Below, piece by piece: positions 1 to 64,000 of a stretch of DNA of 64,000 bases (its first letter is position 1; every line of letters starts with the position of its first letter). Origin of the DNA: Pseudomonadales bacterium. GTDB lineage: Bacteria; Patescibacteriota; Microgenomatia; UBA1400; PJMF01. Below the pieces are notes generated by a model. That model did not search any database, was not told where the DNA came from, and saw only the letters and a list, made by a program, of their open reading frames with translations. A program made the position numbers and the translations under genes. Location: positions 727,272-791,271 of the forward strand of contig JACKFW010000001.1 in assembly GCA_020632265.1 (NCBI GenBank), written 5' to 3'.

Positions 1-19
1 ATACTGTGCCGCAGAGGAC

Positions 20-2431: not shown

Positions 2432-2473
2432 AAAAATTATTGATGTTCAATTCTCGGTTAATCGCAAATAATA

Positions 2474-3592: not shown

Positions 3593-3646
3593 TTATATAC
3601 CAATATTGCTATACTTGAATATTCATTTTTTGCTATAATTAATGAT

Positions 3647-5446: not shown

Positions 5447-5580
5447 GAACACTTATTTTCAGTTTAATAATACAGCTTATTGGATTAAACTTTACACTAA
5501 AGCAGCGCTATAAAAGTTTGTTGCAAACTTAAGTTTGAAAATTTGTTCCATATATTCTCAATTGAAAAAGTAAGCAGTTT

Positions 5581-8685: not shown

Positions 8686-8787
8686 ATCTAGAATATTATA
8701 TCATTTTTGAGAAACAAATTGCCATACTCTATAATTAAATCCAACATCTTCTAGTAAATTGCTTCTTACAAAAGGTATAATCATTTT

Positions 8788-12867: not shown

Positions 12868-12905
12868 CAATTTATAAAAACCAAGAAAAATAATAAAGGC
12901 AAATT

Positions 12906-13892: not shown

Positions 13893-13932
13893 ATGTTATT
13901 ATTAAATTTGAAGTATTTACTGTCCGATACTT

Positions 13933-15105: not shown

Positions 15106-15138
15106 AATTAAATCAAAGAAAGATATAAACTATAAGTA

Positions 15139-16257: not shown

Positions 16258-16326
16258 CAAATAGTTGGTGGCAAAATAGCTAAAATTAAAATAAGTAGAT
16301 AGTTTATAATTTTTCAAGTACAATGT

Positions 16327-38788: not shown

Positions 38789-39592
38789 TTAGGATTTCTT
38801 CGCGTATCTTTCACCACTTACTTGAATAACCTTGTTTCTATTTAAGTTACTGCTTTTTGCTAAAGCGAGAGTTTGTGCTGGGAATGGCTTGGATACCATG
38901 TTATCAATTGAGAGTTTGTTGATAATTTGATATCTATTAAGTGAAACTAAATCTTCAGTTGAATATTTATCACCAAATTCCTTGGCAAAGACTTGAGCAT
39001 CTTCAGCTCCCATTACAAAACTCATCATGCTTCCACAGTTTCCAAAAATTGCTTTTTGAACTTCTTCAGGAATTTGAGCAATATATTGATTGGCTAAAAT
39101 TAAGTTTAGTCGATATTTTCTGGCTTCTGATAAAATTTTATTAAATGATTCGGTGGCAAAGTTCTGGAATTCATCTACATATAGATAGAAGTCTTTTCTT
39201 TGTTCTTCAGGTATGTTCACTCTAGACATGGCTGCGAGCTGAATTTTGGTAATCATCATTGATCCTAAAAGAGTAGCGTTGTCTTCGCCTAGTTTTCCCT
39301 GAGAAAGGTTTACTAAGATAATCTTTCCAGAGCTCATTGCCTCTTCAATACTAAAAGAACTTTTCCTTGCATTAACAATATTTCTGACAATTGGTGAAGA
39401 TACAAATTGACCCACTTTATTTAAAATCGAAGCAATGGATTCAGTTCTTTGTCTGTCCTGCATCATATTGTATTCATCAACCCAAAAGCTTTTTAGAATT
39501 GGATCGTCAAGAGTTTCAACAATATTGTCTCTAAATTTTTTGTTGGTGAGAAGTTCTAATATGTCTGAAAGTCTGGCTTGATCAACTTTCAA
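38789..39592 (-). pseudogene. C-terminal fragment of a VirD4/TraG/HerA-superfamily (coupling-protein-like) ATPase. Carries Walker B.
   Basis: YLYVDEFQNFA (Walker B) followed by LILANQYIAQIPEEVQKAIFGNCGSMMSF..., typical of T4SS coupling proteins. TTG start in the ORF track, but its frame stays open upstream to 39740 and overlaps the previous ORF. Confidence 0.55.
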
Positions 39593-39612
39593 TAAGGTAA
39601 GCAGTGAGTTTC

Positions 39613-40983
39613 TTAAAATGTACTCAAGCCTGGGACCCCAAGAATATCCATATAATTTTTTGAAAACTGAAACAATTCCAGACGCAATGAGTTCTCTATG
39701 AGCAACATTTTCTCCTTCAAAGAGATTGAGTTTAAAGTTCTATTTGGATCACTTGGATCAAAGTAAATAACATCATTGATTCTTCTTGAGGGAATATAGT
39801 TTAAAATTGTTTCAATTAGGTCGCCGTGGGGGTCGATGATACATATTCCTTCGTTGTTTTTGAGATCATTAATCGCCATGTTAGCCAGAAGAGTAGATTT
39901 ACCGGTACCGGTTTTTCCGATTACATACATGTGTCTTCTTCTGTCGTCGCGTTTAAGACCATAAACAACATCATTGTTCTTATACTGAGTTTTGGCAAAG
40001 GCATTAATTTCGCCTTTTAATTCTGGATCCATGTCTCGGGTAATAATAGGCAAATTCTCAGGTGGTTCTCCGAGTAAATTTTTTCCCCAAGCAATGTTGG
40101 AAATGGTTGACAATTTCAAATTTGGCATATGTAACAGCGTAGCAGCTTCTTCTAAGGACAAATTGAATTTTGGAGAGCCCTTAAAACTTCTAGACTTTAA
40201 GAGTTTCAAAAATCTTTTTTTAAGGACATATTTTCGATGCAAAATTAAACTATTACCTTCACTATCGGATACAACGTCAAAAGCAGCTGCAAGAGTGTCA
40301 AATATAACCTTGCTTCTTTGTTGACTATCAGAAGAAATGGCTAATCTAATAGAAGTCTTTAGCGACTTACTGTCAAGTTTTTTATTTACTTTCTGTTTTT
40401 GAACACTCAAAATTTGAAGAGGAGAATTTTCATTTTCAGTGTTAGCTGTTCTATCTGTTGTAATTCCAGCTTTCCACTTTTCCGAGCTTTTTGATATTAC
40501 ATATTGAATTATTACTCGATCAAATTCTTCTAATTTTGACAGAGTAGAGAGTATGGCTGACATCGGATCTGTGTCGCTGAAATCTTTGTAGGTTTTGAGC
40601 GGAAGATATTGAGGCTTTTTTAAGTTGAAACTGCCCATTTCGAAGAAATGACTTTTATTTTTTGCATAATTATCGTGGCGGTTAAGAAATCCATCCAATG
40701 AGTCATGATTAATTTCTGCAATTAAAATTTCAGGATAACTAGCAATTAATATGCTTTTAACATAATTAATCAATCTATCTGGTACATACATTTGAAAAAA
40801 TATGGTTTGATTCTCAACAATAATTTCAAAACTAAGATGTTCGTCTTTTCTGAGTAATTTCCAGTGCCAACGATTTTTTAAGTTGGGTAGGGATGCGAAG
40901 AGTTGAACTGCTGATTCAGGCGTATGTTCGCTATCGCGACCAGTTCTTAGTTCGAGGATAGTGTGGCTTGCGGGCATGTACAA
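39613..40983 (-). pseudogene. N-terminal fragment of the same VirD4/TraG/HerA-superfamily ATPase. Carries Walker A.
   Basis: YVIGKTGTGKSTLLANM (Walker A) then IIDPHGDL. No N-terminal TM. It ends 20 nt before the next ORF, in a different frame. Confidence 0.55.
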
Positions 40984-48282: not shown

Positions 48283-48966
48283 ATGAAAATCAATGATATG
48301 AATGGGTCTTTTTTAACAAGAAAAAATTCAGGTTTTACATTGATTGAATTATTAATAGTGGTTGCCATTTTAGCAATTTTGATCATGATGGCCATTTCTA
48401 CTTTGCCAAAACAACTTGAAAAAGCAAGGGATTCAGAAAGAAAAAGCGATCTGCAAAAAATTAAGATTGCCTTTGAAAATTATCATAATGATAATGGTTG
48501 TTATCCCCCAGCAAATGTTTTAAATAATTGTGGAGGTACATCTCCTGCCAATCACGAACTTAGTCCTTATTTACAAAATATTCCTTGTGATCCAAAAGAT
48601 GAAAAACCATATTTATATTTGCCATACGATAAAAATGGTGGCGCTAATACGTGTGATGGTTATAGGGTTTGGGCAAATTTAGAGAAAAATGATGATCCCT
48701 CAATAGTATTGTTGAATTGTGCCGGGGGTAGTGGTTGTGGAGCATATGCTTTTTTTGCTTCAACACTTGGAGATGAAGCTTCAGAATATAACTATGGCGT
48801 TTCTGAAGGTGTGCCCGTATCTACTGGTGAGCAAGCAATAACTCTGACTAGCGGTTATTGTTGTGCTGGATCATGCAATGAATGGAATATTGATACTGGA
48901 GTTTGTGCAGATGGTCCATATCCATCTTATCAAGATTGCGTGGACATAAGTTATTGCAATGATTAA
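48283..48966 (+). CDS. Prepilin-type N-terminal cleavage/methylation domain protein (type IV pilin/pseudopilin-like), Cys-rich C-terminal domain
   Basis: Class III signal ...RKNSG|FTLIELLIVVAILAILIMMAI with Glu at +5. Confidence 0.78.
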   Translation: MKINDMNGSFLTRKNSGFTLIELLIVVAILAILIMMAISTLPKQLEKARDSERKSDLQKIKIAFENYHNDNGCYPPANVLNNCGGTSPANHELSPYLQNIPCDPKDEKPYLYLPYDKNGGANTCDGYRVWANLEKNDDPSIVLLNCAGGSGCGAYAFFASTLGDEASEYNYGVSEGVPVSTGEQAITLTSGYCCAGSCNEWNIDTGVCADGPYPSYQDCVDISYCND

Positions 48967-48990: not shown

Positions 48991-49518
48991 ATGAAACAAA
49001 AAAATAAGAGCATTTTGGGATTTACAATGATTGAGTTGTTAATTGTGATTGTAATATTGGGCATTCTATCGGTAATTGGACTTGGCTCTTTTACTGCTGC
49101 ACAACAAAAATCACGAGATGCTAATAGAAAAAGTAGCTTAAATGGCATCGCAACTGCTTTGGAGGTTTATTATAATGATCATGGTGCTTATCCTCAGGGA
49201 GTTTCTGGCTCAATTTACGGATGTGGAGTTTCTGGAGTTGAAATATGTGTTTATGGTGCAATCTGGCAGGACGACAATAATACAGTTTATATGGTCCAAA
49301 TACCAACGGATCCGCGACAAAATTCTTTTTATTATGTTTCTGATGGAACAGAATATCAACTCTATGCAAGACTAGAAAATGTTAACGATAGATCGGTTCC
49401 TCAGGTTGGTAATAATCCTGGTGTTTATGCAGTTGCAAGTTCATTTTGTGGTGGATCTGGATGCAATTATGGAATTGCGAGTAGCAATAGTACTTTAGGT
49501 GTCACTGAAGCAGATTAA
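48991..49518 (+). CDS. Prepilin-type N-terminal cleavage/methylation domain protein (type IV pilin-like)
   Basis: ...SILG|FTMIELLIVIVILGILSVIGLGSF; Glu+5. Confidence 0.78.
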   Translation: MKQKNKSILGFTMIELLIVIVILGILSVIGLGSFTAAQQKSRDANRKSSLNGIATALEVYYNDHGAYPQGVSGSIYGCGVSGVEICVYGAIWQDDNNTVYMVQIPTDPRQNSFYYVSDGTEYQLYARLENVNDRSVPQVGNNPGVYAVASSFCGGSGCNYGIASSNSTLGVTEAD

Positions 49519-49554: not shown

Positions 49555-50013
49555 ATGAAAAAAAAGAGAATAACAACAAAGGGTTTTACTCTAATTGAAT
49601 TACTAGTGGTGATTTCCATCATTGGAGTCTTAACAGCACTTTTGCTTTCAAATTTTGTAGGTATCAGGGCCCGAGCAAAAGACGCCCAATTAAAAGCTGA
49701 TCTTCAACAAATGAAAACTGCTTTAAGACTTTACTATAATGATTTCCAACAATATCCTGAAAGTAATTTAAATACATTTAAAAGTTGCAATGAGGAAGCT
49801 TGTGTTCAGGGTTCTGAATTCAACTCAGCTGCTGGAGGAACTGTATATATGAAAGAGTTGCCTGCATTCAGCGAGTATGTACGTACTAACAACGGCGATG
49901 GTTTTTATTTAGGTGTAGTTTTGGAAAATTCTTCCGATCAGGATATTACCGAAAGTGCTACAAAATGTTCTGCCCCTGGAACAGCAGACACATTTTATGT
50001 TTGTTCTGACTAA
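49555..50013 (+). CDS. Prepilin-type N-terminal cleavage/methylation domain protein (type IV pilin-like)
   Basis: ...TTKG|FTLIELLVVISIIGVLTALLLSNF; Glu+5. The C-terminal disulfide pair is typical of pilins. Confidence 0.78.
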   Translation: MKKKRITTKGFTLIELLVVISIIGVLTALLLSNFVGIRARAKDAQLKADLQQMKTALRLYYNDFQQYPESNLNTFKSCNEEACVQGSEFNSAAGGTVYMKELPAFSEYVRTNNGDGFYLGVVLENSSDQDITESATKCSAPGTADTFYVCSD

Positions 50014-50145
50014 TACTTTGTGATTTCTTAGACTGATACTTTGTGATTTCTTAGACTAATACTTTGTGATTTCTTAGACTGATACTTTGTGATTTCTTAG
50101 ACTAATACTTTGTGATTTCTTAGACTGATATTTTTGTGTTTGATG
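50011..50145. repeat. 23-nt tandem repeat array (about 5.5 copies) between the pilin cluster and the 3' end of the giant gene
   Basis: aatactttgtgatttcttagactR repeated head-to-tail from the pilin stop codon onward, alternating ...actga/...actaa variants. Confidence 0.85.
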
Positions 50146-50170: not shown

Positions 50171-53100
50171 CTAATTTACTAACCACCAGTTGAATGAAAC
50201 GTCAGAAGAGGTAGCTTGATCAAAGCCAACAACAAACTCTCCTTCATTTATTGGAGTTTCTTGGTTTTCAGCAGTTTGTTCTTTGACATAAAGCACTTGA
50301 TTTCCTGTGCTTCCAACCGCTGTAACATAGATTAATGTTTTGTCAGTGATTGAGCTTGACTTTATTTTTACTTGAGATGCATTTGCTTTAATTGTTGCTT
50401 TTCCAGAAGTTTTTTCTGAATTAAGTTCGTTGGTTGTTGATGAACCCAGATCTTGACTGCCGATACCAATACCACCAGCAAATTCTGCTTTTCCTTGGGC
50501 AGAAAAGGTTGCGACTGGAGCACCGACTTCATTAATAATTTCGAATCTTGATTCTTTGATATTGCCACTTTGAGTATCAACACCTGCTACTTGAACTTGG
50601 AATGGATTGCCAAAGTCTGTTGGTTTAATTAAATTTGCTAATAGAGTTTTGCCAACTTTTACATCACCAGTACTTTCAAAATTACCATTTACTGTGACCA
50701 TTCCAGAATCGTTGATAGTAACAATTCCTGCCAACAATTCAATCGATCCTTTTCCTTGAGGCTGAATTTTTAGAATTTGATCATCTGGACTTATTGAATT
50801 ATAGGCAATAATGCCATTAGAGATTGAAGTATTTGTATCTTTTGTTCCGATAATTAGCGAGTTATTAACAAAAATTGAGTTTCCAACTGCAAGAGAATCA
50901 GAAATGTATCCAGCTCCGTTTACTTTGAAATATTTTTCGATAAACAATGAAGAACCAGTAAGCGTAACATCATTTCCTAAAAATGAAAGATCGCTAATAC
51001 TTAGATCTAGTTGCGCACTAGTAGTGGCTCCAAATTCTGATTTATTAATTACGTCATAAAGTTCTTCCATATAAGATGCTGAAGTTGTGCTGTCTTTGCC
51101 AATTAATAAGTCTAATAATCCTGGAGTCTGCAGAGTATTGGTAATAGTTTGTTCAAAATTATAAATATTATCGGCGTAAAGTGTTCCAGATATTGTTGCA
51201 GTTACTATCTCAGCTGTATTGGCTTTGATTTTTTCTAATTCTGCAATTCCAGCTTCGAGAGCGGTAATTCTTGCAGAAGTGGCCTCAACTTTATTGGCCA
51301 ATAATGTGCCAGATATCGTTGCATTATTGGCAACGTTCAAGGAGCCAGAAATGGTGGCTTCCTGAGCAAGAAGTATACCGAGATTAGTTTTGCTGGCATT
51401 AATTTCATTGGCTGATAATTTTCCTGAAATAGTAGCTATTGAAGTTTTAAGCTCATTTGAAAGCAAAGTACTTGATTTAATACTTCCAGATATCGTTGCA
51501 TTTCCTTGTGTGGTGAGTGATCCCGAGAGATTTAAATCACCTTTGTTTGATAGCTGAGCAACGGAAACATCAGTGTTATTTTTGAATAATACAGAACCAC
51601 TGTCTGAGTCGATCTTAATTGCTGTATCATCGCCAATTGGAGAGATGAGCGTAGAATTATCATTAGTTGTTCCAGCTGTAACATTATTTATTATATCGGT
51701 AACATAGTTGGTAATTGATTTTCCACCAATAGTAAGTGAATTTACGGAAAGATTATTAATTGAAGCAGTTGATTGAACAACTAATTTTTTCGTGTTGATC
51801 ATTCCTGCTTGAATATTGCCGACAACGGTTTCAGAAAAAAGTGCAATTTTTGAGATTAATCCTTGAGAACTTGAAACATTGTATTTATTTAAAACGATGT
51901 TGTCTTCATTGATGACTACATCATTGGTATTTGCAATTTCAATCATGGGATCAATATGGCTGAGCTGTTCGGTTACTGAATTAAGTGAGAGTTGTTGTTC
52001 TTGAACTGCCTTCACAAGAAGAGGGGTTAGTTTCCCATAATCTACCGACCAATACTCATCGGGATTTTCTGGAATATACACTGCCTCTGGATATATTTGG
52101 GCTAACTGTTGAGCAATAAAGCCAGTGTGGGTTCTTTTTGAATCTTCAGAAATGAACTCATAATCTTTTACTTCAACCTGCAGTAAATCTGCGAGAGAGA
52201 AATTAGTTTCTCTGATATTTTCTTTCAAGCGAATATCTGATGAAGTGCCATAGGTAGTGGTTGTCCCACTGAAAGTAATTTCACCAACGTCTGTGCCATC
52301 ACCGTCATTGAACTGAATGAGGGTACCACTCCCACTATCTGCTCCTGCTTTGATTAATAAACCAAGCCGATTGGCATTATTACCATCATTGAAAAACTTC
52401 GAAACATAATTTGCAGAATCAACAATTACTTCTAATTTTGCTGTGGGAGAATTTTGTCCGACTCCAAAATTGCCCGCATTGTCCAGAATTGCTGCCAATG
52501 TATCATTGGAGAAAAACGACAGTGCATCCTTACCATGTTCGTACTGAATTCTTCCCGAATCATCTCTGTCAGTATCACCAAAAAGAATGCCGGCATTACC
52601 AGTATTTCCTGAGATTACAGAAATAAACGAGTTGTCTGAGGCGGCCGATGATTCATTGGCAACAAAATTAGTTCCAGAGCTGAGTGTTGGGATTGATCCA
52701 CCATCTGCATTGATGTGAAGTTTCACTCCAGCAGTACTAGTGCCAATTCCGATATTGCCGTTGCCATTGACTATGCCCAAGACGGTTCCAGCACTATTTT
52801 GCCATTCGGTGAGGTTGGCGGTTTGGGAGGAGTGGCCTTTGACTATGAATTGCTGAGTATCTGCCGCACCTCGAATAATTGTTGCTCCAGTGATATCGAC
52901 GGGTCTGTCTGCCGTAGCTACGGCTCCAAATTTGATATTGCCAGCGTGCATGGATTGTCCTCCTGTCGAATAGAGTGTCCAGCCAGACTGGGTGCCGGTA
53001 TAGAGAGCTATACCAGTGCTGGTACCACTTGGCTGTTGATCTCCAACAAAAATTCCATAGTTTGAGGTAACGCTAGTGGTGGTGGGAGCACTTACATATA

Positions 53101-56100
53101 GTTGATAGAGGTTACTGGCTGAGTTTACAGATTGGCTAATATTAAGCCCTTTGACCGTTGTTGATGATCCTGACAATTGATTGAGAATATTAATTCCAGT
53201 TGGACTAGTAATAGTTTTTCCTGTTCCAGAAGAAACTCCAGTATTGACACCCGTTGCCGCTGCAATAGTACCGTCTCCCTGTTGTGATACCAGATAGTTC
53301 ATTCCGTATAAAGAACTGATAGTTTGAGCATTAGAATGAATTGCGGATCCATATACAGAAGAATAGTTGCCCCCCGCACTTGTTGGATCGATTACCCAGT
53401 TAAAAATGGCCGATTGTGCATCTGTAGCTGCTGTTTGAGTCCAAGAAGAAGTTAGTTGTCCGTACATCGATAATTTTCCGTTTGCATCAATGGTTAGTTT
53501 TGGATTGCCACTACTGTCTTGCCATTCTTGTAGGTTGGCGGTTTGAGATCCAGAATTAGCTTTAATAATTTGACCAATGGCGGCATCAGCTCCTGTGTTG
53601 ATTTGTAACTTAGCTCCCGCAGTCGTTGTCCCAATCCCCACATTTCCACCAAAGTATGCTTTTCCATTACTCTGCAACAAGATATCGGCACTAGCTGTAC
53701 TAGTGCCACCAATGGCTAGATCAACTACACTAGCTAGTTCATTTTTGGGATGCAAGACGTTGGCTGTATTAGACCACAAGCTAAATCCAGAACCTAGTGA
53801 CGCAGGATCTGTCCAAGTATTTGCTCCACCCGCAGAGGAGGTGAGTAGGTACCCACTCGTACCTGCATTACCTGCTACTCTAATAGCATCAGTGAGATTG
53901 AGTTCACCGACTACATCGAGAGCGTAGCCGGGAGCAGTAGAACCGATGCCGACGTTGCTACCGAAGTATGCGCCCCCGTCTTTGTTTATAAATGCTTTTT
54001 CAGTTGTGTAATTTATAAATGATATAATTTTAGCACCAGCGGTTACAAATGATTCTCCAGTTCTAAATTGATGAGCAATCGCACTAGCTCCGTCATTAAT
54101 CCATCCAGTAGAGTACACAGCGTTTCCCGAGGTGCCTCCAATTCCATAGATATTTACATAACCTCTAGAATAGATTTCTAATGGCCAACCATTTGAATTT
54201 GGAGTTGAAATAGAAGAATATATGCTTCCTGGAATCGTAGCTGCTTCAAAGCCTAATTTTCGTGCTCCAAGAAACATACTTCCAGATCCACCGCTATCTT
54301 TAATTCTAACTGTTTGAGTAGTTCCTGCATCAAGAAGATCAAGTTTATACCCACCAGTCGTCGTCCCAATCCCAACATTGCCAGCAACTAACAATGAATT
54401 GCCTCCAGATGCAGGGTCAAGATAATAACTTGAATTTGTATTGTCTACAAATCTTTCTGCATAAACAAAACCATCTCGAGCGACTTGAAACTTTAAGACT
54501 CCAGAGGCAGATGCAGAAATGATTGGTTGATCACCCGTTTCATTAAGGATAAACAATGATTTTCCCGTAACTTTACCTTCAATATTAAGTAATCCAACCG
54601 GAGTGTTGGTGCCGATACCAATATTTCCACTACTTCCTTGTAGAAATAGCGCATTTGTTTTTCCCGAGGCTTCTATTCTAAAGTCAGCGTTGCTTCCTTG
54701 CTCATTAAATATTGCTGAACCATTTGCTAATAAATGTATATTTGCACTAGCAGTACTAGTGCCACCAATAGCTAGATCAACCACACCAGCTAGTTCATTT
54801 TTGGGATGAAGGACATTGGCTGTATTAGACCACAAACTAAATCCAGAACCCAGTGACGCAGGATCTGTCCAAGTATTTGCTCCACCAGCAGAGGAGGTCA
54901 GTAGGTACCCACTTGTACCTGCATTACCTGCTACTCTAATAGCATCAGTGAGATTGAGTTCACCGACTACATCTAGAGCGTAGCCGGGGTTGCTAGATCC
55001 AATACCTATATTGCCGTTTTCATCAACGGCACCTAGCACAGTGCCCGCACTGTTTTGCCATTCAGTGAGGTTGGCGGTTTGAGATGTAATTGATTTTATC
55101 GCGATTGTAGGCGTGGATATTGTGTGAGTTTGTATGGTCAACGATCCAGTTGGAGTAACTGAGTGACCAATTGTAACGTTTCTATCTTCAAATGAAGTAA
55201 AGACGCTATAATCACTGCTATTAGAAAAGCGAATAGAATCGCTTGAACTTAGTGTTTTGAAGCTTATTTTTTTACCAGTAGTTGCAGACGTTCTAAATTC
55301 AATATCTTTATTAGTACCTGCTGCCCATATCCCAGATCCACTATTATATGTTAATGACATAAGTGTTTCATTACTTGGATTTATAAATTTAATTATGTCA
55401 TCGCTACCAGAGCTTTTTATAGCTAGCGTAGAATTTAAACCAGAATTTGTTGTCCCAATTCCCACATTCCCTCCAAAGTATGCTTTACCATTACTCTGTA
55501 ACAAAATATCGGCACTAGCAGTACTAGTACCACCAATAGCTAGATCAACCACACTTGCCAACTCATTCTTGGGATGCAAGACATTCAGTGTGTTTGCCCA
55601 AATGTTAGAAACAGCTAGGGTAGCAGGATCTGTCCAAGTATTTGCTCCACCAGCAGAGGAGGTGAGTAGGTACCCACTTGTACCTGCATTACCTGCTACT
55701 CTAATAGCATCAGTGAGATTGAGTTCACCGACTACATCGAGAGCGTAGCCGGGAGCAGTAGAACCGATGCCGACGTTGCCATTGCCATCAAGCCTCATTC
55801 CTTCAATGTAACCATTCGTTCCTCCTCCAGCAGTTCCAGTGGGCGAATAAAAGAACTTAAGACCTGCGGCAGCGCCACTTCCCCACGAAGTTCCACTTCT
55901 TATACTTAACCACTGGCCATATCGATTGGTTAACCCGGCATCAGGTCCAGACAGGGCGACATCTGAGCCCCATTGACCAAGAATAAGATGTGTTCCTTGC
56001 CAAGTCATGGGTCCAGATCCCGCCCAAAATGACATAGTATTTACAGCACTTCGGCGTATGTATAAATCTGATCCGGTTGGATTGTCGAAGTATAAGTAGC

Positions 56101-59100
56101 CCGTGGTTCTTAAATTGCCTGCAATCTCTAGTTTCTGAGAAGGCGCATTCGTCCCAATCCCCACATTCCCTCCAAAGTATGCTTTCCCATTACTTTGTAG
56201 CAAGATATCGGCACTGGCAGTACTGGTGCCTCCAATGGCTAGATCAACCACACTAGCTAATTCGTCCTTTGGATGCAGGACATTAGCTGTATTAGACCAC
56301 AAGCTAAATCCAGAACCCAATGATGCAGGATCTGTCCAGGTATTTGCACCACCAGCAGAGGAGGTGAGTAGATATCCACTTGTACCGGCACTACCAGCTA
56401 CTCTAATAGCATCTGTGAGATTCAGTTCACCGACAACATCGAGAGTGTAACCTGGAGCGGTGGAACCGATGCCGACGTTGCCAACATTTTGAATCACAAA
56501 TCTATTTGTTCCAGAAGCTGAAGCAGCAAAGATGTCTTGATTGCCCGTTTCATTGAGGATGGTCAGGGCTTTGCCGGTGGCTTTGCCAGAAATATTGAGT
56601 AGTCCAATTGGTGTCGTTGTCCCAATTCCTATGTTACCCGAAGAATTTACGATCATTCTTTGTGTTCCATCCGTAAGTAAGGCAAGGTCTCTAGCTGAGC
56701 CACCGCTGGAACCTTTTGAAGTTCCAATATTCAAAACATTCGAGTTCCAGTAGAAGTCGCCACGTTCGTATGAAGTTCCTGAGGAGTAGGTATTATAGAT
56801 TCTGAAAGATTGTGCGTTCGTAGAATTTCGAAGTGAAATATTGTTCGCTTCGTCGGAAAGCAGAAATGCGCTAGGTCCTGTTGCGGAATTAAACCCAAGA
56901 GCATAGCCCGCCTGTATTGCTAGCGCTGCAGTGGCATTATTGATACCTAATAAATCGGCACCGGATTTTGAAAAAAATATCGCCGCCCCGTTTTGCCGGA
57001 TTCCGACTCCGGACGCGTTTGTAAAAGATAAAGATGGGGCCGCCGCCGTCCCATTGGGCAGCAATAATTGTCCCGATGCTAGCTCTAAAGTACCTCCTGG
57101 TGTCGTCGTCCCAATCCCCACATTCCCCCCGAAGTATGCTTTCCCATTACTCTGTAACAAGATGTCGGCACTAGCAGTACTGGTGCCACCAATGGCTAGA
57201 TCAACCACGCTGGCCAACTCATTCTTTGGATGCAGGACATTGAGTGTATTTGCCCAGATATTGGAAACAGCCAAGGTTGCAGGATCTGTCCAAGTATTAG
57301 CACCACCAGCAGAGGAGGTGAGTAGATATCCACTTGTACCAGCATTACCTGCTACTCTAATAGCATCTGTCAAGTTTAGTTCACCGACAACATCGAGAGC
57401 GTAGCCGGGAGTGGTGGAACCGATGCCGACGTTGCCGGTATTGGCTACAAATAGAGTTGGAGTTGAATCTGCTGCAGTACCACCAATACCAACATTACCT
57501 CCTTGGTTTAAAAAGAGGTTCCACTGATTACTAGTTTGAAACCCAAGATTAATACCACTTGCGTTGACAATTTTATTACCCGTTCCATTAAATAACAGAG
57601 AACTTCCAGCAGAGAGCTGTATATTTCCAGCAACATCTAGCTTTTGTCCGGGGCTGACAGTCCCAATCCCAACATTGCCACCATTTTGAATCACAAATCT
57701 ATTTGTTCCAGAAGCTGAAGCAGCAAAGATGTTTTGATCACCTGTTTCATTGAGGATAGTCAGGGCTTTGCCGGTGGCTTTGCCAGAAACATTGAGTAGT
57801 CCAATTGGAGTCGTTGTCCCAATTCCCACATTGCCGACTCTGAAAAGTGCGGCATAGTGACTGCCTGTCAGAGAAGTGACTGTTGGATTGTAATCAATAC
57901 CGACAACACTACCATCATATGTTCCACTGGTAGAAATAGTTGGGCTGATATCTAAATATTTCTTTTGGCCAGTGCCACTACTTGGGTTAAATACCGTCCC
58001 GTGCAATCTTAACACTGAATCTGTTGAATTACCGTAGCCATCAAATACTGCAACCTCATTATTTCCTGCCCAGACGCTAATATTGGTGTTACCCGAATCA
58101 TTGCTTTTAAATCCAGTAAAACCGCCATCACCCATGGTCGGAGGCCTAAGATTATAACCTGTTGCTTTGATGTATTGATTTGTAATGATGTCATATCCCG
58201 TAGTGTAGTTTTCTGTAAAGTTGCCAACTTTGAGTATGCCGTTAATTTGAGCTGCTTGAGTTGGATTGGTTGTCCCAATCCCCACATTTCCTCCAAAGTA
58301 TGCTTTTCCATTACTCTGCAACAAGATATCGGCACTAGCAGTACTAGTGCCACCAATAGCTAGATCAACTACACTTGCCAACTCATTCTTGGGATGTAGG
58401 ACATTAGCTGTATTAGACCACAAGCTAAATCCAGAACCTAGTGACGCAGGATCTGTCCAAGTATTTGCTCCACCCGCAGAGGAGGTGAGTAGATAGCCAG
58501 AAGTACCAGCATTACCTGCAACTCTAATAGCATCAGTGAGATTCAGTTCACCGACTACATCTAGAGCGTAGCCGGGGTTACTAGATCCAATACCTATGTT
58601 GCCGTTTTCATCAACGGCACCTAACACAGTCCCAGCACTATTTTGCCATTCCTGCAAATTTGAAGCTTGAGAGGCAATACCCTTAACTCTGAGGGGAACG
58701 CCGTCTGTTGCTTGAGAATGAATTGTTAAACCTGCGCCAGTACCACTGAAAAGTCCATAAATGAGAGGTGTAGCTGTATTTGAGTTGGCAATGTAGAGTC
58801 TGTTTGAGCCGGTTTCGTTGGAGCCAGCCTGATAACCAATCATGACACTACCGACCGAACCTTGGTATCCTGCCTGATAGCCGATTGCCGTTAGATTACT
58901 GGAGCTGGTATTTGTGGCGCCGTATCCAGCTTGATTTCCAACTAAGGTAGCATTTCGGGTTTGGATTAAATTATTACCAACTTGATAACCAATAGCTGAA
59001 TTACTATTTCCCACTCCCGGCCAGTTTAGGGAAGTTAATGCTTGAATGCCAATCGCGACGTTATTTAATTCGGTTGTGGAGGTGTTGAGTGCCAAATCTC

Positions 59101-62100
59101 CTATTGCCACATTGTTGCCACCTTCAGTTAAGTTTTGAAGAGCAGATCTTCCAAGACCAAAGTTTGAATATCCAGTTGTGACTGCTTGTAGTGAATATGA
59201 ACCCAAAGAAATATTCTTAGTCCCACTTGTAAGAGCAGTTTGACTTAGGTAGCCAATGGCAACATTGTTGTTTCCTGTATTTGTTGAATTTCCAGCCAAA
59301 TAACCTGCAAAAAAGTTAGTATTGCCTGTACCTAAATTGGCTTCTAGTCTTCCAGTTCCACTAATAAATGAAAGTGGGGTGCCACTACTATTTTGCCACT
59401 CCTGTAGGTTTGCAGTTTGAGAGCCAGAATTGGCTTTAATGATTTGCCCAATGGCGGCATCAGCTCCTGTGTTGATTTGTAACTTAGCTCCTGCAGTCGT
59501 TGTCCCAATCCCCACATTCCCCCCAAAGTATGCTTTACCATTACTTTGCAACAAGATATCGGCACTAGCAGTACTAGTGCCACCAATAGCTAGATCAACT
59601 ACACTTGCCAACTCATTCTTGGGATGCAAGACATTCAGTGTGTTTGCCCAAATGTTAGAAACAGCTAGGGTAGCAGGATCTGTCCAAGTATTAGCGCCAC
59701 CCGCAGAGGAGGTGAGTAGGTACCCACTTGTACCAGCATTACCTGCAACTCTAATAGCATCTGTCAGATTTAGTTCACCGACTACATCTAGAGCGTAGCC
59801 AGGAGTGGTGGAACCGATGCCGACGTTTCCGGCATCAGTTATTCTTAGTCTCTCTGTGAGAGTAGTTCCAGTTTCGAAACTAATGTAATCTCCGTTGTTG
59901 TTTGAAGCAGAGATCACAATAGGTCTAATTTCAGAATGAATAGATAAAACCTCACTTTTGCTAGGATGTTGACCAAAGTAGTAGCTATCAGAAGACGTCG
60001 TTGATCTTGCATAAATTCCTTGAGAAAATGATCCAGAACCATTCACTGCTAATTTATGAGTTGGACTTGCCGTCCCAATTCCAATATTACCATCATTTTG
60101 AATTACAAATCTATTTGTTCCAGAAGCTGAAGCAACAAAAATATTTTGATCACCTGTTTCATTGAGGATAGTCAGGGCTTTGCCGGTTGCTTTACCCGAA
60201 ACATTGAGTAGGCCAATTGGAGTCGTCGTCCCAATCCCCACATTGCCGTTGTCTAGAATCACCACTTCACTCGTGGTATCGCCATCAGGATCAAAGCCAA
60301 GATAATTACTAGTGGTGTTGTATCCTAGAATTGCTTCGTTACCATCGTCACCAATATGAATACTCGAACCTTTGACAAATAACTCAGTCCAACGAGAACT
60401 TGAAGAACCAAGACTACTGACTCCATCAGCAGCAGGTAAGAAATCATCTGAAGCTATTAAATCGGAACCATTCCATCTCAAATACTCAGTTGCACCATTG
60501 CCAAAGTAGAGATAATTAGCTAACTCAATATCACCTGCTACATCTAACAATTGGCTAGCAGTCGTCGTCCCAATCCCCACATTCCCCCCAAAGTATGCTT
60601 TGCCATTACTCTGCAACAAGATATCGGCACTAGCAGTACTGGTGCCACCAATAGCTAGATCAACTACACTAGCTAGTTCATTTTTGGGATGCAAGACATT
60701 CAGTGTGTTTGCCCAAATGTTAGAAACAGCTAGGGTAGCAGGATCTGTCCAGGTATTAGCACCACCAGCAGAGGAGGTGAGTAAATAGCCACTTGTACCA
60801 GCACTACCAGCGACTCTAATAGCATCAGTTAAGTTTAATTCACCGACAACATCGAGAGCGTAGCCGGGAGTGGTGGAACCGATACCGACGTTGCCGGTAT
60901 TGGCTACAAATAGAGTTGGAGTTGAATCTGCTGCAGTACCACCAATACCAACATTACCTCCTTGGTTTAAAAAGAGGTTCCACTGATTACTAGTTTGAAA
61001 CCCAAGATTAATACCACTTGCGTTGACAATTTTATTACCCGTTCCATTAAATAACAGAGAACTTCCAGCAGAGAGCTGTATATTTCCAGCAACATCTAGC
61101 TTTTGTCCGGGGCTGACAGTCCCAATCCCAACATTGCCAGCATTTTGAATTACAAATCTATTTGTTCCAGAAGCTGAAGCAACAAAGATGTTTTGATCAC
61201 CTGTTTCATTGAGGATGGTCAGGGCTTTGCCGGTGGCTTTACCTGAAACATTGAGTTTTCCGATCGCGGAAGTGGTCCCAATACCAACATTTCCTCCACT
61301 TGCTTGTAAATTCATGCTATAGGCAATAGCCGTACTAGTTCTGCCTGCCTGAATCCAAGAATCTCCACTACCACTTCTACCAAAGTAGAGTCCATATCCC
61401 TCTGAAGGTTTTGCAATAGCAAATGCAATTCCTGCTGAGCTACCCAGAATCATTGAGGTTGAATCTATCGAGGCAGCCACCTCAAGCTTGGCTTGTGGAA
61501 TATTTGTACCAATTCCAACGTTGGAAGTTCCACCATCTAAATAAAATGTATTTTCATCTGTATCGCTTTCAATTCTGAAATTACTATCAACGCCAGCATC
61601 ATTGAAAGTTGCACCAGAGTAAGCAATACTTAATAAATTTGTTGAACCAGCTAAAAATTGAACAGATTTTCCCGCTCCGCCTCCGAATCGAAACTGTAAA
61701 TTATCATAAATATCTGTTCCAACAGATGAATCTTGATCTTGAGCACTAACCCCACTAAAGGTAATTACATTATTTCCAGGCATTGCCAGTATTGATTCTG
61801 GAGAAGTACTGCCAATCCCCACATTCCCCCCAAAGTATGCTTTCCCATTACTTTGCAACAAGATATCGGCACTAGCAGTACTGGTGCCACCAATAGCTAG
61901 ATCAACTACACTTGCCAACTCATTCTTGGGATGCAAGACGTTGGCTGTATTAGACCACAAACTAAATCCAGAACCTAGGGTAGCAGGATCGGTCCAAGTG
62001 TTAGCGCCACCTCCCGAAGAGGTAAGAAGATAGCCAGCAGTACCAGCATTACCACCAGCTCTAACTGCACCGGACATATTAACATCACCGACAACATCAA

Positions 62101-64000
62101 GTTTGTAGCCCGGGGTTACAGAGCCCACACCAACGTTTCCACCCCCCGTGAGTGCTTGTACGGTTAAAATATTTTGATCGCCGTTCTTGACGTTAAGGAG
62201 CGAAATGTTATTGCGATATCCAGAGCCTCCATCAATTTGGACAACTGTTCCCGTGAGAGTATCACCAATTTGATTTGTGAGTAGATGCTGAAGGGTCGTG
62301 TTATTCGATTGATACATTATAGTAGCACCACTAAAGATTCTTGGTTTAGATTCAGTTCCATCAATAAGAAGGAGAGAGCCATTTGGAGGATGAAATGCCG
62401 TGATACCAACAACGTCGAGAGTATAGCCAGGAGCAGTAGAACCAATCCCCACATTGCCGTTGTCTAGAATCACCACTTCACTCGTGGTATCGCCATCAGG
62501 ATCAAAGCCAAGATAATTACTAGTGGTGTTGTATCCTAGAATTGCTTCGTTACCATCGTCACCAATATGAATACTCGAACCTTTGACAAATAACTCAGTC
62601 CAACGAGAACTTGAAGAACCAAGACTACTGACTCCATCAGCAGCAGGTAAGAAATCATCTGAAGCTATTAAATCGGAACCATTCCATCTCAAATACTCAG
62701 TTGCACCATTGCCAAAGTAGAGATAATTAGCTAACTCAATATCACCTGCTACATCTAACAATTGGCTAGCAGTCGTCGTCCCAATCCCCACATTCCCCCC
62801 AAAGTATGCTTTGCCATTACTCTGCAACAAGATATCGGCACTAGCAGTACTGGTGCCACCAATAGCTAGATCAACTACACTAGCTAGTTCATTTTTGGGA
62901 TGCAAGACATTCAGTGTGTTTGCCCAAATGTTAGAAACAGCTAGGGTAGCAGGATCTGTCCAGGTATTAGCACCACCAGCAGAGGAGGTGAGTAAATAGC
63001 CACTTGTACCAGCACTACCAGCGACTCTAATAGCATCAGTTAAGTTTAATTCACCGACAACATCGAGAGCGTAGCCGGGAGTGGTGGAACCGATACCGAC
63101 GTTGCCGGTATTGGCTACAAATAGAGTTGGAGTTGAATCTGCTGCAGTACCACCAATACCAACATTACCTCCTTGGTTTAAAAAGAGGTTCCACTGATTA
63201 CTAGTTTGAAACCCAAGATTAATACCACTTGCGTTGACAATTTTATTACCCGTTCCATTAAATAACAGAGAACTTCCAGCAGAGAGCTGTATATTTCCAG
63301 CAACATCTAGCTTTTGTCCGGGGCTGACAGTCCCAATCCCAACATTGCCAGCATTTTGAATTACAAATCTATTTGTTCCAGAAGCTGAAGCAACAAAGAT
63401 GTTTTGATCACCTGTTTCATTGAGGATGGTCAGGGCTTTGCCGGTGGCTTTACCTGAAACATTGAGTAGTCCAATTGGAGTAGTAGTACCTATGCCAATA
63501 TTTCCATTGTTTTGAATCACAAATCTATTTGTTCCAGAAGCTGAAGCAACAAAGATGTTTTGATCACCTGTTTCATTGAGGATAGTCAGGGCTTTGCCGG
63601 TGGCTTTACCAGAAACATTGAGTAGTCCAATTGGAGTAGTAGTACCTATGCCAATATTTCCATTGTTTTGAATCACAAATCTATTTGTTCCAGAAGCTGA
63701 AGCAACAAAGATGTTTTGGTTGCCGGTTTCATTGAGGATAGTCAGGGCTTTGCCGGTTGCTTTACCCGAAACATTGAGTAATCCAGTTGCAGTCGTCGTC
63801 CCAATCCCCACATTCCCCCCGAAGTATGCTTTCCCATTACTCTGTAACAAGATGTCGGCACTAGCAGTACTGGTGCCACCAATAGCTAGATCAACTACAC
63901 TTGCCAACTCATTCTTGGGATGCAAGACATTCAGTGTGTTTGCCCAAATGTTAGAAACAGCTAGGGTAGCAGGATCTGTCCAAGTATTAGCGCCACCCGC
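50171..64000 (-). CDS. Giant repetitive fibre-like surface protein, 5'-partial (more than 4584 aa; the frame is open to the window edge). Many ~50-aa Gly/Thr/Asn-rich repeats, with a Peptidase S74-like intramolecular chaperone/autoproteolysis domain about 640 aa from the C-terminus.
   Basis: Single open frame 50171..64000. Modules recur, including GNVGIGTTTPIGLLNVSGKATGKALTILNETGDQNIFVASASGTNRFVIQN, HPKNELASVVDLAIGGTSTASADILLQSNGKAYFGGNVGIG and YALDVVGELNLTDAIRVAGNAGTSGYLLTSSAGGANTWTDPA. SDIRLKENI... is at about 52213-52240 (minus strand). Confidence 0.8.
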   Translation of the reverse strand, partial: AGGANTWTDPATLAVSNIWANTLNVLHPKNELASVVDLAIGGTSTASADILLQSNGKAYFGGNVGIGTTTATGLLNVSGKATGKALTILNETGNQNIFVASASGTNRFVIQNNGNIGIGTTTPIGLLNVSGKATGKALTILNETGDQNIFVASASGTNRFVIQNNGNIGIGTTTPIGLLNVSGKATGKALTILNETGDQNIFVASASGTNRFVIQNAGNVGIGTVSPGQKLDVAGNIQLSAGSSLLFNGTGNKIVNASGINLGFQTSNQWNLFLNQGGNVGIGGTAADSTPTLFVANTGNVGIGSTTPGYALDVVGELNLTDAIRVAGSAGTSGYLLTSSAGGANTWTDPATLAVSNIWANTLNVLHPKNELASVVDLAIGGTSTASADILLQSNGKAYFGGNVGIGTTTASQLLDVAGDIELANYLYFGNGATEYLRWNGSDLIASDDFLPAADGVSSLGSSSSRWTELFVKGSSIHIGDDGNEAILGYNTTSNYLGFDPDGDTTSEVVILDNGNVGIGSTAPGYTLDVVGITAFHPPNGSLLLIDGTESKPRIFSGATIMYQSNNTTLQHLLTNQIGDTLTGTVVQIDGGSGYRNNISLLNVKNGDQNILTVQALTGGGNVGVGSVTPGYKLDVVGDVNMSGAVRAGGNAGTAGYLLTSSGGGANTWTDPATLGSGFSLWSNTANVLHPKNELASVVDLAIGGTSTASADILLQSNGKAYFGGNVGIGSTSPESILAMPGNNVITFSGVSAQDQDSSVGTDIYDNLQFRFGGGAGKSVQFLAGSTNLLSIAYSGATFNDAGVDSNFRIESDTDENTFYLDGGTSNVGIGTNIPQAKLEVAASIDSTSMILGSSAGIAFAIAKPSEGYGLYFGRSGSGDSWIQAGRTSTAIAYSMNLQASGGNVGIGTTSAIGKLNVSGKATGKALTILNETGDQNIFVASASGTNRFVIQNAGNVGIGTVSPGQKLDVAGNIQLSAGSSLLFNGTGNKIVNASGINLGFQTSNQWNLFLNQGGNVGIGGTAADSTPTLFVANTGNVGIGSTTPGYALDVVGELNLTDAIRVAGSAGTSGYLLTSSAGGANTWTDPATLAVSNIWANTLNVLHPKNELASVVDLAIGGTSTASADILLQSNGKAYFGGNVGIGTTTASQLLDVAGDIELANYLYFGNGATEYLRWNGSDLIASDDFLPAADGVSSLGSSSSRWTELFVKGSSIHIGDDGNEAILGYNTTSNYLGFDPDGDTTSEVVILDNGNVGIGTTTPIGLLNVSGKATGKALTILNETGDQNIFVASASGTNRFVIQNDGNIGIGTASPTHKLAVNGSGSFSQGIYARSTTSSDSYYFGQHPSKSEVLSIHSEIRPIVISASNNNGDYISFETGTTLTERLRITDAGNVGIGSTTPGYALDVVGELNLTDAIRVAGNAGTSGYLLTSSAGGANTWTDPATLAVSNIWANTLNVLHPKNELASVVDLAIGGTSTASADILLQSNGKAYFGGNVGIGTTTAGAKLQINTGADAAIGQIIKANSGSQTANLQEWQNSSGTPLSFISGTGRLEANLGTGNTNFFAGYLAGNSTNTGNNNVAIGYLSQTALTSGTKNISLGSYSLQAVTTGYSNFGLGRSALQNLTEGGNNVAIGDLALNTSTTELNNVAIGIQALTSLNWPGVGNSNSAIGYQVGNNLIQTRNATLVGNQAGYGATNTSSSNLTAIGYQAGYQGSVGSVMIGYQAGSNETGSNRLYIANSNTATPLIYGLFSGTGAGLTIHSQATDGVPLRVKGIASQASNLQEWQNSAGTVLGAVDENGNIGIGSSNPGYALDVVGELNLTDAIRVAGNAGTSGYLLTSSAGGANTWTDPASLGSGFSLWSNTANVLHPKNELASVVDLAIGGTSTASADILLQSNGKAYFGGNVGIGTTNPTQAAQINGILKVGNFTENYTTGYDIITNQYIKATGYNLRPPTMGDGGFTGFKSNDSGNTNISVWAGNNEVAVFDGYGNSTDSVLRLHGTVFNPSSGTGQKKYLDISPTISTSGTYDGSVVGIDYNPTVTSLTGSHYAALFRVGNVGIGTTTPIGLLNVSGKATGKALTILNETGDQNIFAASASGTNRFVIQNGGNVGIGTVSPGQKLDVAGNIQLSAGSSLLFNGTGNKIVNASGINLGFQTSNQWNLFLNQGGNVGIGGTAADSTPTLFVANTGNVGIGSTTPGYALDVVGELNLTDAIRVAGNAGTSGYLLTSSAGGANTWTDPATLAVSNIWANTLNVLHPKNELASVVDLAIGGTSTASADILLQSNGKAYFGGNVGIGTTTPGGTLELASGQLLLPNGTAAAPSLSFTNASGVGIRQNGAAIFFSKSGADLLGINNATAALAIQAGYALGFNSATGPSAFLLSDEANNISLRNSTNAQSFRIYNTYSSGTSYERGDFYWNSNVLNIGTSKGSSGGSARDLALLTDGTQRMIVNSSGNIGIGTTTPIGLLNISGKATGKALTILNETGNQDIFAASASGTNRFVIQNVGNVGIGSTAPGYTLDVVGELNLTDAIRVAGSAGTSGYLLTSSAGGANTWTDPASLGSGFSLWSNTANVLHPKDELASVVDLAIGGTSTASADILLQSNGKAYFGGNVGIGTNAPSQKLEIAGNLRTTGYLYFDNPTGSDLYIRRSAVNTMSFWAGSGPMTWQGTHLILGQWGSDVALSGPDAGLTNRYGQWLSIRSGTSWGSGAAAGLKFFYSPTGTAGGGTNGYIEGMRLDGNGNVGIGSTAPGYALDVVGELNLTDAIRVAGNAGTSGYLLTSSAGGANTWTDPATLAVSNIWANTLNVLHPKNELASVVDLAIGGTSTASADILLQSNGKAYFGGNVGIGTTNSGLNSTLAIKSSGSDDIIKFINPSNETLMSLTYNSGSGIWAAGTNKDIEFRTSATTGKKISFKTLSSSDSIRFSNSSDYSVFTSFEDRNVTIGHSVTPTGSLTIQTHTISTPTIAIKSITSQTANLTEWQNSAGTVLGAVDENGNIGIGSSNPGYALDVVGELNLTDAIRVAGNAGTSGYLLTSSAGGANTWTDPASLGSGFSLWSNTANVLHPKNELAGVVDLAIGGTSTASANIHLLANGSAIFNEQGSNADFRIEASGKTNALFLQGSSGNIGIGTNTPVGLLNIEGKVTGKSLFILNETGDQPIISASASGVLKFQVARDGFVYAERFVDNTNSSYYLDPASGGNSLLVAGNVGIGTTTGGYKLDLLDAGTTQTVRIKDSGGSGSMFLGARKLGFEAATIPGSIYSSISTPNSNGWPLEIYSRGYVNIYGIGGTSGNAVYSTGWINDGASAIAHQFRTGESFVTAGAKIISFINYTTEKAFINKDGGAYFGSNVGIGSTAPGYALDVVGELNLTDAIRVAGNAGTSGYLLTSSAGGANTWTDPASLGSGFSLWSNTANVLHPKNELASVVDLAIGGTSTASADILLQSNGKAYFGGNVGIGTTTAGAKLQINTGADAAIGQIIKANSGSQTANLQEWQDSSGNPKLTIDANGKLSMYGQLTSSWTQTAATDAQSAIFNWVIDPTSAGGNYSSVYGSAIHSNAQTISSLYGMNYLVSQQGDGTIAAATGVNTGVSSGTGKTITSPTGINILNQLSGSSTTVKGLNISQSVNSASNLYQLYVSAPTTTSVTSNYGIFVGDQQPSGTSTGIALYTGTQSGWTLYSTGGQSMHAGNIKFGAVATADRPVDITGATIIRGAADTQQFIVKGHSSQTANLTEWQNSAGTVLGIVNGNGNIGIGTSTAGVKLHINADGGSIPTLSSGTNFVANESSAASDNSFISVISGNTGNAGILFGDTDRDDSGRIQYEHGKDALSFFSNDTLAAILDNAGNFGVGQNSPTAKLEVIVDSANYVSKFFNDGNNANRLGLLIKAGADSGSGTLIQFNDGDGTDVGEITFSGTTTTYGTSSDIRLKENIRETNFSLADLLQVEVKDYEFISEDSKRTHTGFIAQQLAQIYPEAVYIPENPDEYWSVDYGKLTPLLVKAVQEQQLSLNSVTEQLSHIDPMIEIANTNDVVINEDNIVLNKYNVSSSQGLISKIALFSETVVGNIQAGMINTKKLVVQSTASINNLSVNSLTIGGKSITNYVTDIINNVTAGTTNDNSTLISPIGDDTAIKIDSDSGSVLFKNNTDVSVAQLSNKGDLNLSGSLTTQGNATISGSIKSSTLLSNELKTSIATISGKLSANEINASKTNLGILLAQEATISGSLNVANNATISGTLLANKVEATSARITALEAGIAELEKIKANTAEIVTATISGTLYADNIYNFEQTITNTLQTPGLLDLLIGKDSTTSASYMEELYDVINKSEFGATTSAQLDLSISDLSFLGNDVTLTGSSLFIEKYFKVNGAGYISDSLAVGNSIFVNNSLIIGTKDTNTSISNGIIAYNSISPDDQILKIQPQGKGSIELLAGIVTINDSGMVTVNGNFESTGDVKVGKTLLANLIKPTDFGNPFQVQVAGVDTQSGNIKESRFEIINEVGAPVATFSAQGKAEFAGGIGIGSQDLGSSTTNELNSEKTSGKATIKANASQVKIKSSSITDKTLIYVTAVGSTGNQVLYVKEQTAENQETPINEGEFVVGFDQATSSDVSFNWWLVN
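60570..63350. repeat. Near-exact 2.2-kb direct duplication inside the giant gene
   Basis: Identical antisense ORF fragments at 60600..60788 and 62811..62999, with the same peptide and a 2211-nt offset. Hundreds of bp of flanking identity are visible by eye. A third, more diverged copy lies around 57100..57700. Confidence 0.8.

Follow-up and report, generated by a model that had tools for sequence, protein, structure and literature searches.

The 64,000-nucleotide stretch of contig JACKFW010000001.1 analysed here (the window), which comes from a Microgenomates-type Patescibacterium, ends in the 3′ part of a giant minus-strand gene. The product of this gene is, very probably, a cellular, phage-like fibre that carries a genuine Peptidase S74 intramolecular chaperone domain. 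The domain is followed by a conserved tail of about 600 residues, and on balance we favour a reading in which chaperone and tail form a cassette that would register and fold the fibre trimer and would then be severed from it at Ser3921, exposing a variable adhesive end.

The initial annotation of the window had described a minus-strand frame open from 50171 to the window edge and encoding an incomplete protein, and this description, together with all of the coordinates that it gave, proved correct. Reading from 64000 to 50171, the frame holds 4,609 sense codons, with its sole stop at 50171-50173. The complete protein, P0081, was recovered by an exhaustive search of a representative library with the last 599 aa as query. 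It is 5,466 aa long and the in-window part is identical to its residues 858-5466, residue 1 of the window being residue 858; the window holds the C-terminal 84% of P0081, and the first 857 aa are encoded outside it. Glycine makes up 13.6% of the in-window protein, serine, threonine, alanine and asparagine are also abundant, and there is no cysteine in the 4,609 residues. The parts of the gene are as follows (residue numbers, here and below, are in-window unless stated otherwise):

50171-64000, minus strand: giant fibre gene, 3′ part, 4,609 codons and stop; open frame that runs off the window
53603-64000, minus strand: mosaic fibre shaft, aa 1-3466; 11 conserved blocks and inserts, matches to PHROG families and to 8OND
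63354-63793, minus strand: 2.8 tandem copies of a 156-nt fibre unit that encodes 52 aa, found with Tandem Repeats Finder at 95% matches
52241-53602, minus strand: unique, poorly conserved pre-S74 region, aa 3467-3920; mostly unalignable in 28 S74-bearing relatives
51971-52240, minus strand: Peptidase S74 intramolecular chaperone, aa 3921-4010; PF13884 and profile matches
51374-51970, minus strand: first part of the tail (linker), aa 4011-4209; a conserved segment, ...GNIQAGMINTKKLVVQSTASINNLSVNSLTIGGKSITNYV..., then a variable stretch bearing ATISG motifs
50174-51373, minus strand: conserved core of the tail, aa 4210-4609, with FNWWLVN at its end; it comprises an amphipathic helix (ATSARITALEAGIAELEKIKANTAEI), a region rich in beta structure and the terminal beta-sandwich
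50174-50458, minus strand: terminal beta-sandwich, about 95 aa; predicted local distance difference test (pLDDT) scores from AlphaFold2 mostly 80-97, and above 90 over roughly the last 70 residues

The S74 domain and the tail behind it

An S74 chaperone signature had initially been read at SDIRLKENI, and profile searches bear this out. The Pfam profile PF13884 matches aa 3921-3975 over its whole length (positions 1-58 of 58; E 6.4e-14; 52.4 bits against a cut-off of 22). The motif SSDIRLKENI begins at residue 3920 (window 52243-52214), and within it S3921-D-I-R-L-K3926 fits the pattern S-D-x-x-x-K and aligns with SSDRRIK and ASDERLK of solved S74 chaperones. The predicted nucleophile is Ser3921 (codon 52238-52240) and the predicted base Lys3926 (codon 52223-52225), corresponding to S4778 and K4783 of the full-length protein. 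A single-sequence phmmer search of the PDB returned chance matches only and no S74 structure, and a search of NCBIfam gave no match; a profile built from 16 sequences found, in the PDB, the phage S16 fibre 6F45 (1.4e-17), 8JOV (1.5e-14), MYRF 7DC3 (3.4e-10) and T5 pb1 8HQZ (1.8e-5). These profile alignments match the S-D...K residues and extend over about 100 positions, reaching through the ...LTPLLVKAVQEQQ... helix of the helical C-terminal part, indicating that the domain is complete (approximately aa 3921-4010). Both Ser and Lys are kept in 44 of the 44 tail-family members that carry S74, and the covalent link between shaft and tail is therefore probably broken; from the sequence, we consider active self-cleavage likely.

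From Ser3921 to the C-terminus there are 689 aa, against 90-145 aa in typical homologues. About 635 of these residues lie beyond the Pfam match, close to the estimate of about 640 made initially, and about 600 beyond the whole chaperone domain. The S74 domain is thus internal in this protein; a C-terminal position is usual for the domain, not defining. The earlier remark that S74 is normally terminal holds for the typical homologues; the suggestion that a long tail is peculiar to this protein does not, since the tail is the hallmark of a Patescibacteria family and since MYRF is known to have an internal S74 domain, which makes the internal position compatible with membership of the S74 family.

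Comparison of segments of P0081 with 28 S74-bearing relatives gave a graded pattern of conservation. The tail core is conserved best (30-67% identity, with full or near-full coverage in most of the relatives), followed by S74 (27-52%) and then by the linker (24-37%), while the 454 aa before S74 are mostly unalignable, or partly alignable at other positions. It follows that the variable element precedes the cut site and the conserved elements lie behind it, as is the case in phage fibres. The pre-S74 region (aa 3467-3920) is a candidate for the distal end that cleavage would expose, and on this pattern the tail is best read as a family-specific piece of an assembly and maturation cassette rather than as the variable receptor-binding element.

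Five ATISG motifs are present in the in-window protein, all of them within the tail. These motifs had been noticed before; the coiled-coil-like character given to them is left unverified by a model of low confidence for this stretch, in which a single helix of about 24 residues lies just after them. Modelling of the last 442 aa with AlphaFold2 and a 39-sequence alignment gave a mean pLDDT of 69, with values above 70 over the last 260 or so residues and above 90 over roughly the last 70-80.

The tail-defined family and the role of the tail

The tail matches at least 683 cluster representatives (50% clusters) at E<=1e-3, 105 of them at E<=1e-30, and is always C-terminal. P0081 is the top match of this search. 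Many of the tail-bearing representatives are 2,000-5,600 aa long, and members share the end motif ...FNWW(I/L)VN with one of three slot domains ahead of the tail. An overall frame, in which a SAM-like domain is followed by a membrane helix, a base, a long fibre, a chaperone and the tail, is common to about 50 independent representatives with lengths of 2,000-5,600 aa.

Among 88 members of at least 850 aa the slot is occupied by S74 in 36, at 540-790 aa from the protein end, by an alternative domain in 46, and by both in none. The alternative domain, of about 175 aa, occupies the same position as S74 and has the consensus ADLAExY...GD.V...LGIVST.PG...AL.GRVPVKV...GD.ITSS..PG.GMKAT.AG..VGKALE. 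Only some members match Pfam Peptidase_G2 (PF11962), with 25.5 and 30.6 bits at a cut-off of 25 and with a partial alignment to profile positions 26-99, approximately, of 228; there is also a weak alignment of the domain with 3GQH, the cleaved phi29 autochaperone, beginning at the first residue of the latter (E 0.006). As about half of the relatives have this G2-like domain in the place of S74, the slot can be described as one for interchangeable autoprocessing chaperones. The six remaining members have neither domain: one has a degenerate S74, and five (P0109, P0139, P0152, P0166 and P0173) share a third domain about 650-670 aa from their C-termini, with the consensus TIDPPYWI.G.KYATY..SM.G..EE...LYKYVIDF...WL..R.ID.D..M.NL.VL.S...YKKD...QLI..G.AP.E. 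This third domain has no match in Pfam or the PDB, and may be another processing or chaperone module. S74-type and G2-type members can be neighbours: at positions 1-12619 of locus L030 a 5,149-aa G2-type giant, a 376-aa open reading frame (ORF) and an 872-aa S74-type protein lie in tandem on one strand, and the giant and the 872-aa protein both end in the family tail. Among the papers searched, none links S74 or Peptidase_G2 to fibres of Patescibacteria; the parts are known, and there seems to be no earlier description of the frame, of the tail or of the interchangeable slot.

The orientation of the fibre can be read from the part of P0081 outside the window. The N-terminus has two Phage_int_SAM_1 Pfam matches, which precede the only hydrophobic segment of the protein (full-length aa 441-466, approximately). 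This segment is flanked by six Lys/Arg residues before it and two after it, and the membrane helix is predicted to be oriented N-in, which would leave some 440 N-terminal residues in the cytoplasm. Next comes a base domain of about 150 aa, in which conservation is highest within the family (63-86% identity in 47 relatives). The helix and the charges around it imply that the fibre is anchored N-terminally, with S74 and the tail at its far end, and the order of parts in P0081 is two SAM-like domains, membrane helix, base domain, shaft of about 4,300 aa, variable distal region, S74 and the tail of about 600 aa. A MYRF-like release of the N-terminal domain was considered and rejected, the lone hydrophobic segment lying at residues 441-466 or so and S74 at 4778. 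The integrase SAM-like domain, of the core-binding type, is present in one or two copies in 44 relatives, and gives the surface fibre a domain of a DNA-binding type inside the cell.

In the mechanism that we favour, the chaperone-plus-tail cassette would, after export, align three chains in register from the C-terminus and would nucleate folding of the trimeric beta-helical shaft. S74 would then cut at Ser3921 (full-length S4778), severing the 689-aa chaperone-plus-tail fragment and exposing the variable distal end, which would then make contact, probably when the bacterium attaches to a host cell. We infer each of these elements, namely trimerisation, nucleation from the C-terminus, cleavage, the exposed adhesive end and host attachment; the invariant dyad and the exchange of modules among relatives lend some strength to trimerisation and to release of the C-terminal fragment. 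The further proposal that the tail is mainly an assembly pro-domain, not a functional tip or a released factor, is put forward tentatively, at somewhat less than even confidence.

Several observations weigh against this mechanism. An AlphaFold2 monomer model of S74 and tail, based on 6 sequences, was poor (pLDDT 38), and trimerisation and cleavage in this protein are predictions from its sequence. Host attachment is suggested solely by analogy with the lifestyle of cultivated Patescibacteria, which are reported to be episymbiotic (PMC11665869). The match to Peptidase_G2 is marginal and was obtained for 2 of 12 members, and a profile of the alternative domain confined to the slot found no match in the PDB, for which reason the G2 assignment is only moderate. 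Short members such as P0003 consist of about 70% tail, which would be odd if the tail were merely discarded. Finally, the likeness of the modelled beta-sandwich to known folds is as compatible with binding as it is with assembly.

These last points lead to an alternative, which we regard as rather doubtful, in which the tail itself would do the work of the fibre. It would then be a conserved lectin-like or adhesive tip, or a soluble 689-aa trimer that is released deliberately, and S74 would serve mainly as a folding chaperone, the two halves staying associated or the cut being regulated. The terminal beta-sandwich does match the distal, C-terminal domains of tailspikes and lectin or collagen-binding folds, and the model of the whole tail weakly resembles the fibre tips of Bd2133 (probability 0.87), lambda gpJ and the R2 pyocin fibre; some short proteins consist largely of tail, as P0003 (872 aa) illustrates; and strong conservation of the tail would be expected if its partner were conserved. 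However, receptor-binding tips are usually variable, whereas the tail is among the best-conserved modules and it is the region before S74 that varies. The invariant Ser-Lys dyad, with the broken link that it makes probable, also argues against a tip that stays on the fibre. Furthermore, at least two, and probably three, unrelated slot domains are found before the tail, and since two of them come from autoproteolytic chaperone families, processing at that junction is indicated.

In a more elaborate version, which we consider unlikely, chaperone and tail would form an undescribed, Patescibacteria-specific maturation cassette for giant trimeric fibres. Here S74, the G2-like domain and the ‘DPPYWI...YKYVIDF’ domain would be unrelated but interchangeable parts placed before the conserved tail of about 600 aa; cleavage would arm the tip and at the same time release a conserved, trimeric, tailspike-like fragment that has its own function, and through the conserved SAM-like domain in the cytoplasm the fibre would be connected with DNA or with intracellular signalling.

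Shaft repeats and genomic setting

The shaft had been described as dozens of near-identical modules of about 50 aa, and this description has to be replaced. Within the window it is built of 11 copies of a conserved block of about 120 aa, which lie 233-415 aa apart (block starts at aa 1, 296, 618, 1033, 1388, 1797, 2186, 2504, 2738, 2993 and 3345) with variable inserts of 112-293 aa between them, some of which recur along the shaft; 455 unique residues separate the last block from S74. The signature of the block is GNVGIGSTTPGYALDVVGELNLTDAIRVAG...TWTDPA...ADILLQSNGKAYFGGNVGIGT, and it also shows GNVGIGSTTPGYALDVVGELNLTDAIRVAG..GYLLTSSAGGANTWTDPA..LHPKNELASVVDLAIGGTSTASADILLQSNGKAYFGGNVGIGT. 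The core of the 52-aa unit, LLN[VI]SGKATGKALTILNETG, has six exact matches, three of them inside the 156-nt tandem array, and the short motif GN[IV]GIG occurs 35 times. The likeness to phage tail fibres that had been seen in the repeats is upheld: the shaft matches the PHROG tail-fibre families phrog_9942 and phrog_18345 and the solved Bdellovibrio fibre Bd2133 (PDB 8OND; E 6.1e-15 and 7.9e-13), with which its GNVGIG...P..KLEV motif aligns.

Repeats on this scale raise the question of whether assembly created the giant ORF, or a large part of it, by collapsing, expanding or mis-joining repeats, an explanation that we find highly improbable. Positions 62442-63505 and 60231-61294 form a 1,064-nt duplication with 98.9% identity and an exact core of 1,026 bp, at an offset of 2,211 nt; it is a recent duplication or gene conversion, and an assembly hazard. 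In addition, the short-read (Logan) contig L029, from the same organism and with identical flanking proteins, breaks at the 3′ end of the gene, stopping right after the third pilin gene at a 23-nt array. However, most repeat copies are only 84-94% identical in DNA and are therefore resolvable in assembly, the frame is open across 13.8 kb, and the overall frame recurs in the independent representatives described above. An artefact of the whole ORF was rejected on these grounds. The giant gene is real; its repeat copy number is uncertain, because of the 1,026-bp exact repeat and because the short-read assembly ends at the gene.

A second question is whether the gene is cellular at all. Other features located in the window are:

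18518-20086: dnaA
41843-43177: rho
48283-48966, 48991-49518 and 49555-50013, plus strand: three prepilin-type genes that converge on the giant gene and match N_methyl and T2SSG in Pfam
50008-50134, no strand: tandem array of the 23-nt unit GACTAATACTTTGTGATTTCTTA in 5.5 copies, lying between the stop codons of the two converging genes

Much about the protein would be expected of a tail-fibre gene of a phage or prophage: its shaft matches PHROG tail-fibre families, S74 is a typical component of phage fibres (its sequence has matches in 216 phage records), and the fold of its tail matches phage tailspikes. Yet the genes around it are of another kind. By Pfam, the window includes dnaA, rho, obg, radA, an M23/LysM peptidase, parts of type IV secretion systems and pilins, and the giant gene has rho, obg, an M23 peptidase, a TPR protein and pilins as its neighbours. 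No phage structural genes turned up when 20 flanking ORFs were scanned against Pfam, and neither tRNA genes nor Rfam RNA families were found within the window. The same order is seen at locus L031, from another metagenome, in which the 3′ end of the fibre gene is followed by one extra gene, three pilins, the TPR protein, obg, the M23 peptidase and rho. The tail is absent from 50,697 phage records, and a single-protein scan of IMG/VR, of a kind that detects close relatives only, found none; a cytoplasmic N-terminal domain with a membrane anchor is common to dozens of relatives. Because of its neighbours DnaA, Rho, Obg and RadA, the synteny with L031 and the lack of the tail in phage collections, the gene is assigned to the cell and the prophage reading, which we hold to be most improbable, is rejected: the giant fibre gene is chromosomal.

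The three convergent pilin-like genes and the 23-nt array named in the initial annotation are thus both present. In what is known of synteny, which for this pair comes from one close relative, L031, alone, the pilin genes appear as neighbours of the giant gene. The array begins inside the final codons of the third pilin gene and extends to the stop of the giant gene; position 5 of the unit alternates between A and G, and the sequence is unique within the window. It may act as a terminator or as a site of protein binding.

The record is named ‘Pseudomonadales’, and this name is wrong. The G+C content of the window is 36%, the contig measures only about 1 Mb, the nearest named relatives of its Rho protein (67-83% identity) are from the Patescibacteria group, Woesebacteria and Pacebacteria, and the related fibre loci are all from Microgenomates-type Patescibacteria, from which we assign the organism, on sequence grounds, to the last of these. 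Many related third-party-annotated (TPA) metagenome-assembled genomes (MAGs) carry the same kind of label, Gammaproteobacteria or Pseudomonadales.

Elsewhere in the window, near dnaA, genes resembling those of type IV secretion systems (T4SS) lie at 8788-18381 and 38789-40983. They encode a 1,359-aa protein in which M23 peptidase and NAGPA domains are combined, a member of the PrgI family, an ATPase of the VirB4/TraG type and a split coupling protein of the TraG/TraD type (DUF87 and TraG-D_C). Conjugation-like T4SS have been described in Patescibacteria, with which these genes are in keeping. Large ORFs of 328-1,034 aa with no Pfam match are found at 20-2431, 2474-3592, 5581-8685, 12906-13892 and 15139-16257; the products of 20-2431, 2474-3592 and 5581-8685 showed no similarity to the giant fibre when compared with it.

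Significance and comparison with known systems

Cultivated Patescibacteria live attached to host bacteria, by means that are poorly understood. The locus described here offers a concrete and widespread candidate for attachment, a family of hundreds of protein clusters with membrane-anchored fibres that reach about 5,600 aa. If the dimensions of the Bd3182 model (about 550 Å for 922 aa) are scaled up, such a fibre could be some 0.2 μm long, roughly the length of a cell. The family reuses the receptor-binding architecture of phages, as Bdellovibrio does. Its fixed frame, variable middle and swappable slot provide a handle for finding determinants of host specificity, and also for asking how very long trimers register and fold outside the cell, and why a large conserved fragment follows the cleavage site. 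There is a practical warning as well: such genes break short-read assemblies, and the present record is taxonomically mislabelled.

The closest cellular parallel is provided by Bdellovibrio bacteriovorus, which has 21 mosaic adhesive trimer (MAT) fibres of about 1,000 aa, 13 of them ending in S74 (Caulton et al., 2024; PMC10769870). MAT fibres are mosaic in build, and the predator employs them on its prey; experiments showed that they form trimers and that Bd3182 cleaves itself, which S782A blocks (PMC10769870). Both systems are cellular phage-like fibres, and Bdellovibrio likewise lives on other bacteria; both share shaft motifs of the form GNxGIG...P...KL..V, a mosaic build and S74 with SDxxxK. 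They differ in length, P0081 with its 5,466 aa being five times longer, and at both ends. The MAT N-terminus, by description, is a signal peptide and a beta-rich domain of about 130 aa, whereas the N-terminal part of P0081 comprises a SAM-like domain in the cytoplasm, followed by a membrane helix and a conserved domain of about 150 aa. MAT fibres end in S74, or in a tip domain that replaces it, whereas in P0081 about 600 residues follow S74 and the tail family has a three-way swappable slot.

Phage fibres and tailspikes with S74, such as the K1F endosialidase, T5 pb1 (8HQZ) and the S16 fibre (6F45), have in common with P0081 the S74 domain with its Ser-Lys dyad and the succession of a variable distal region and a conserved chaperone, and the beta-sandwich of P0081 is tailspike-like. 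In contrast, the phage chaperone is C-terminal, with about 90-145 aa after the Ser, phage fibres are attached to a virion, and the tail of P0081 is in no phage record. The pre-neck appendage autochaperone of phi29 and GA-1 (Peptidase_G2; 3GQH) is related through the G2-like domain that replaces S74 in about half of the relatives of P0081, although P0081 itself has S74 and not G2.

MYRF has an internal S74-type domain, its intramolecular chaperone autoprocessing (ICA) domain (7DC3), with a long C-terminal continuation. It resembles P0081 in this, and in being a membrane protein with an N-terminal domain of a DNA-binding type. The MYRF chaperone is cytoplasmic; it adjoins the DNA-binding domain and precedes the membrane helix, and its cleavage frees a transcription factor. 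In P0081, by contrast, the single membrane helix is close to the N-terminus, some 4,300 aa before S74.

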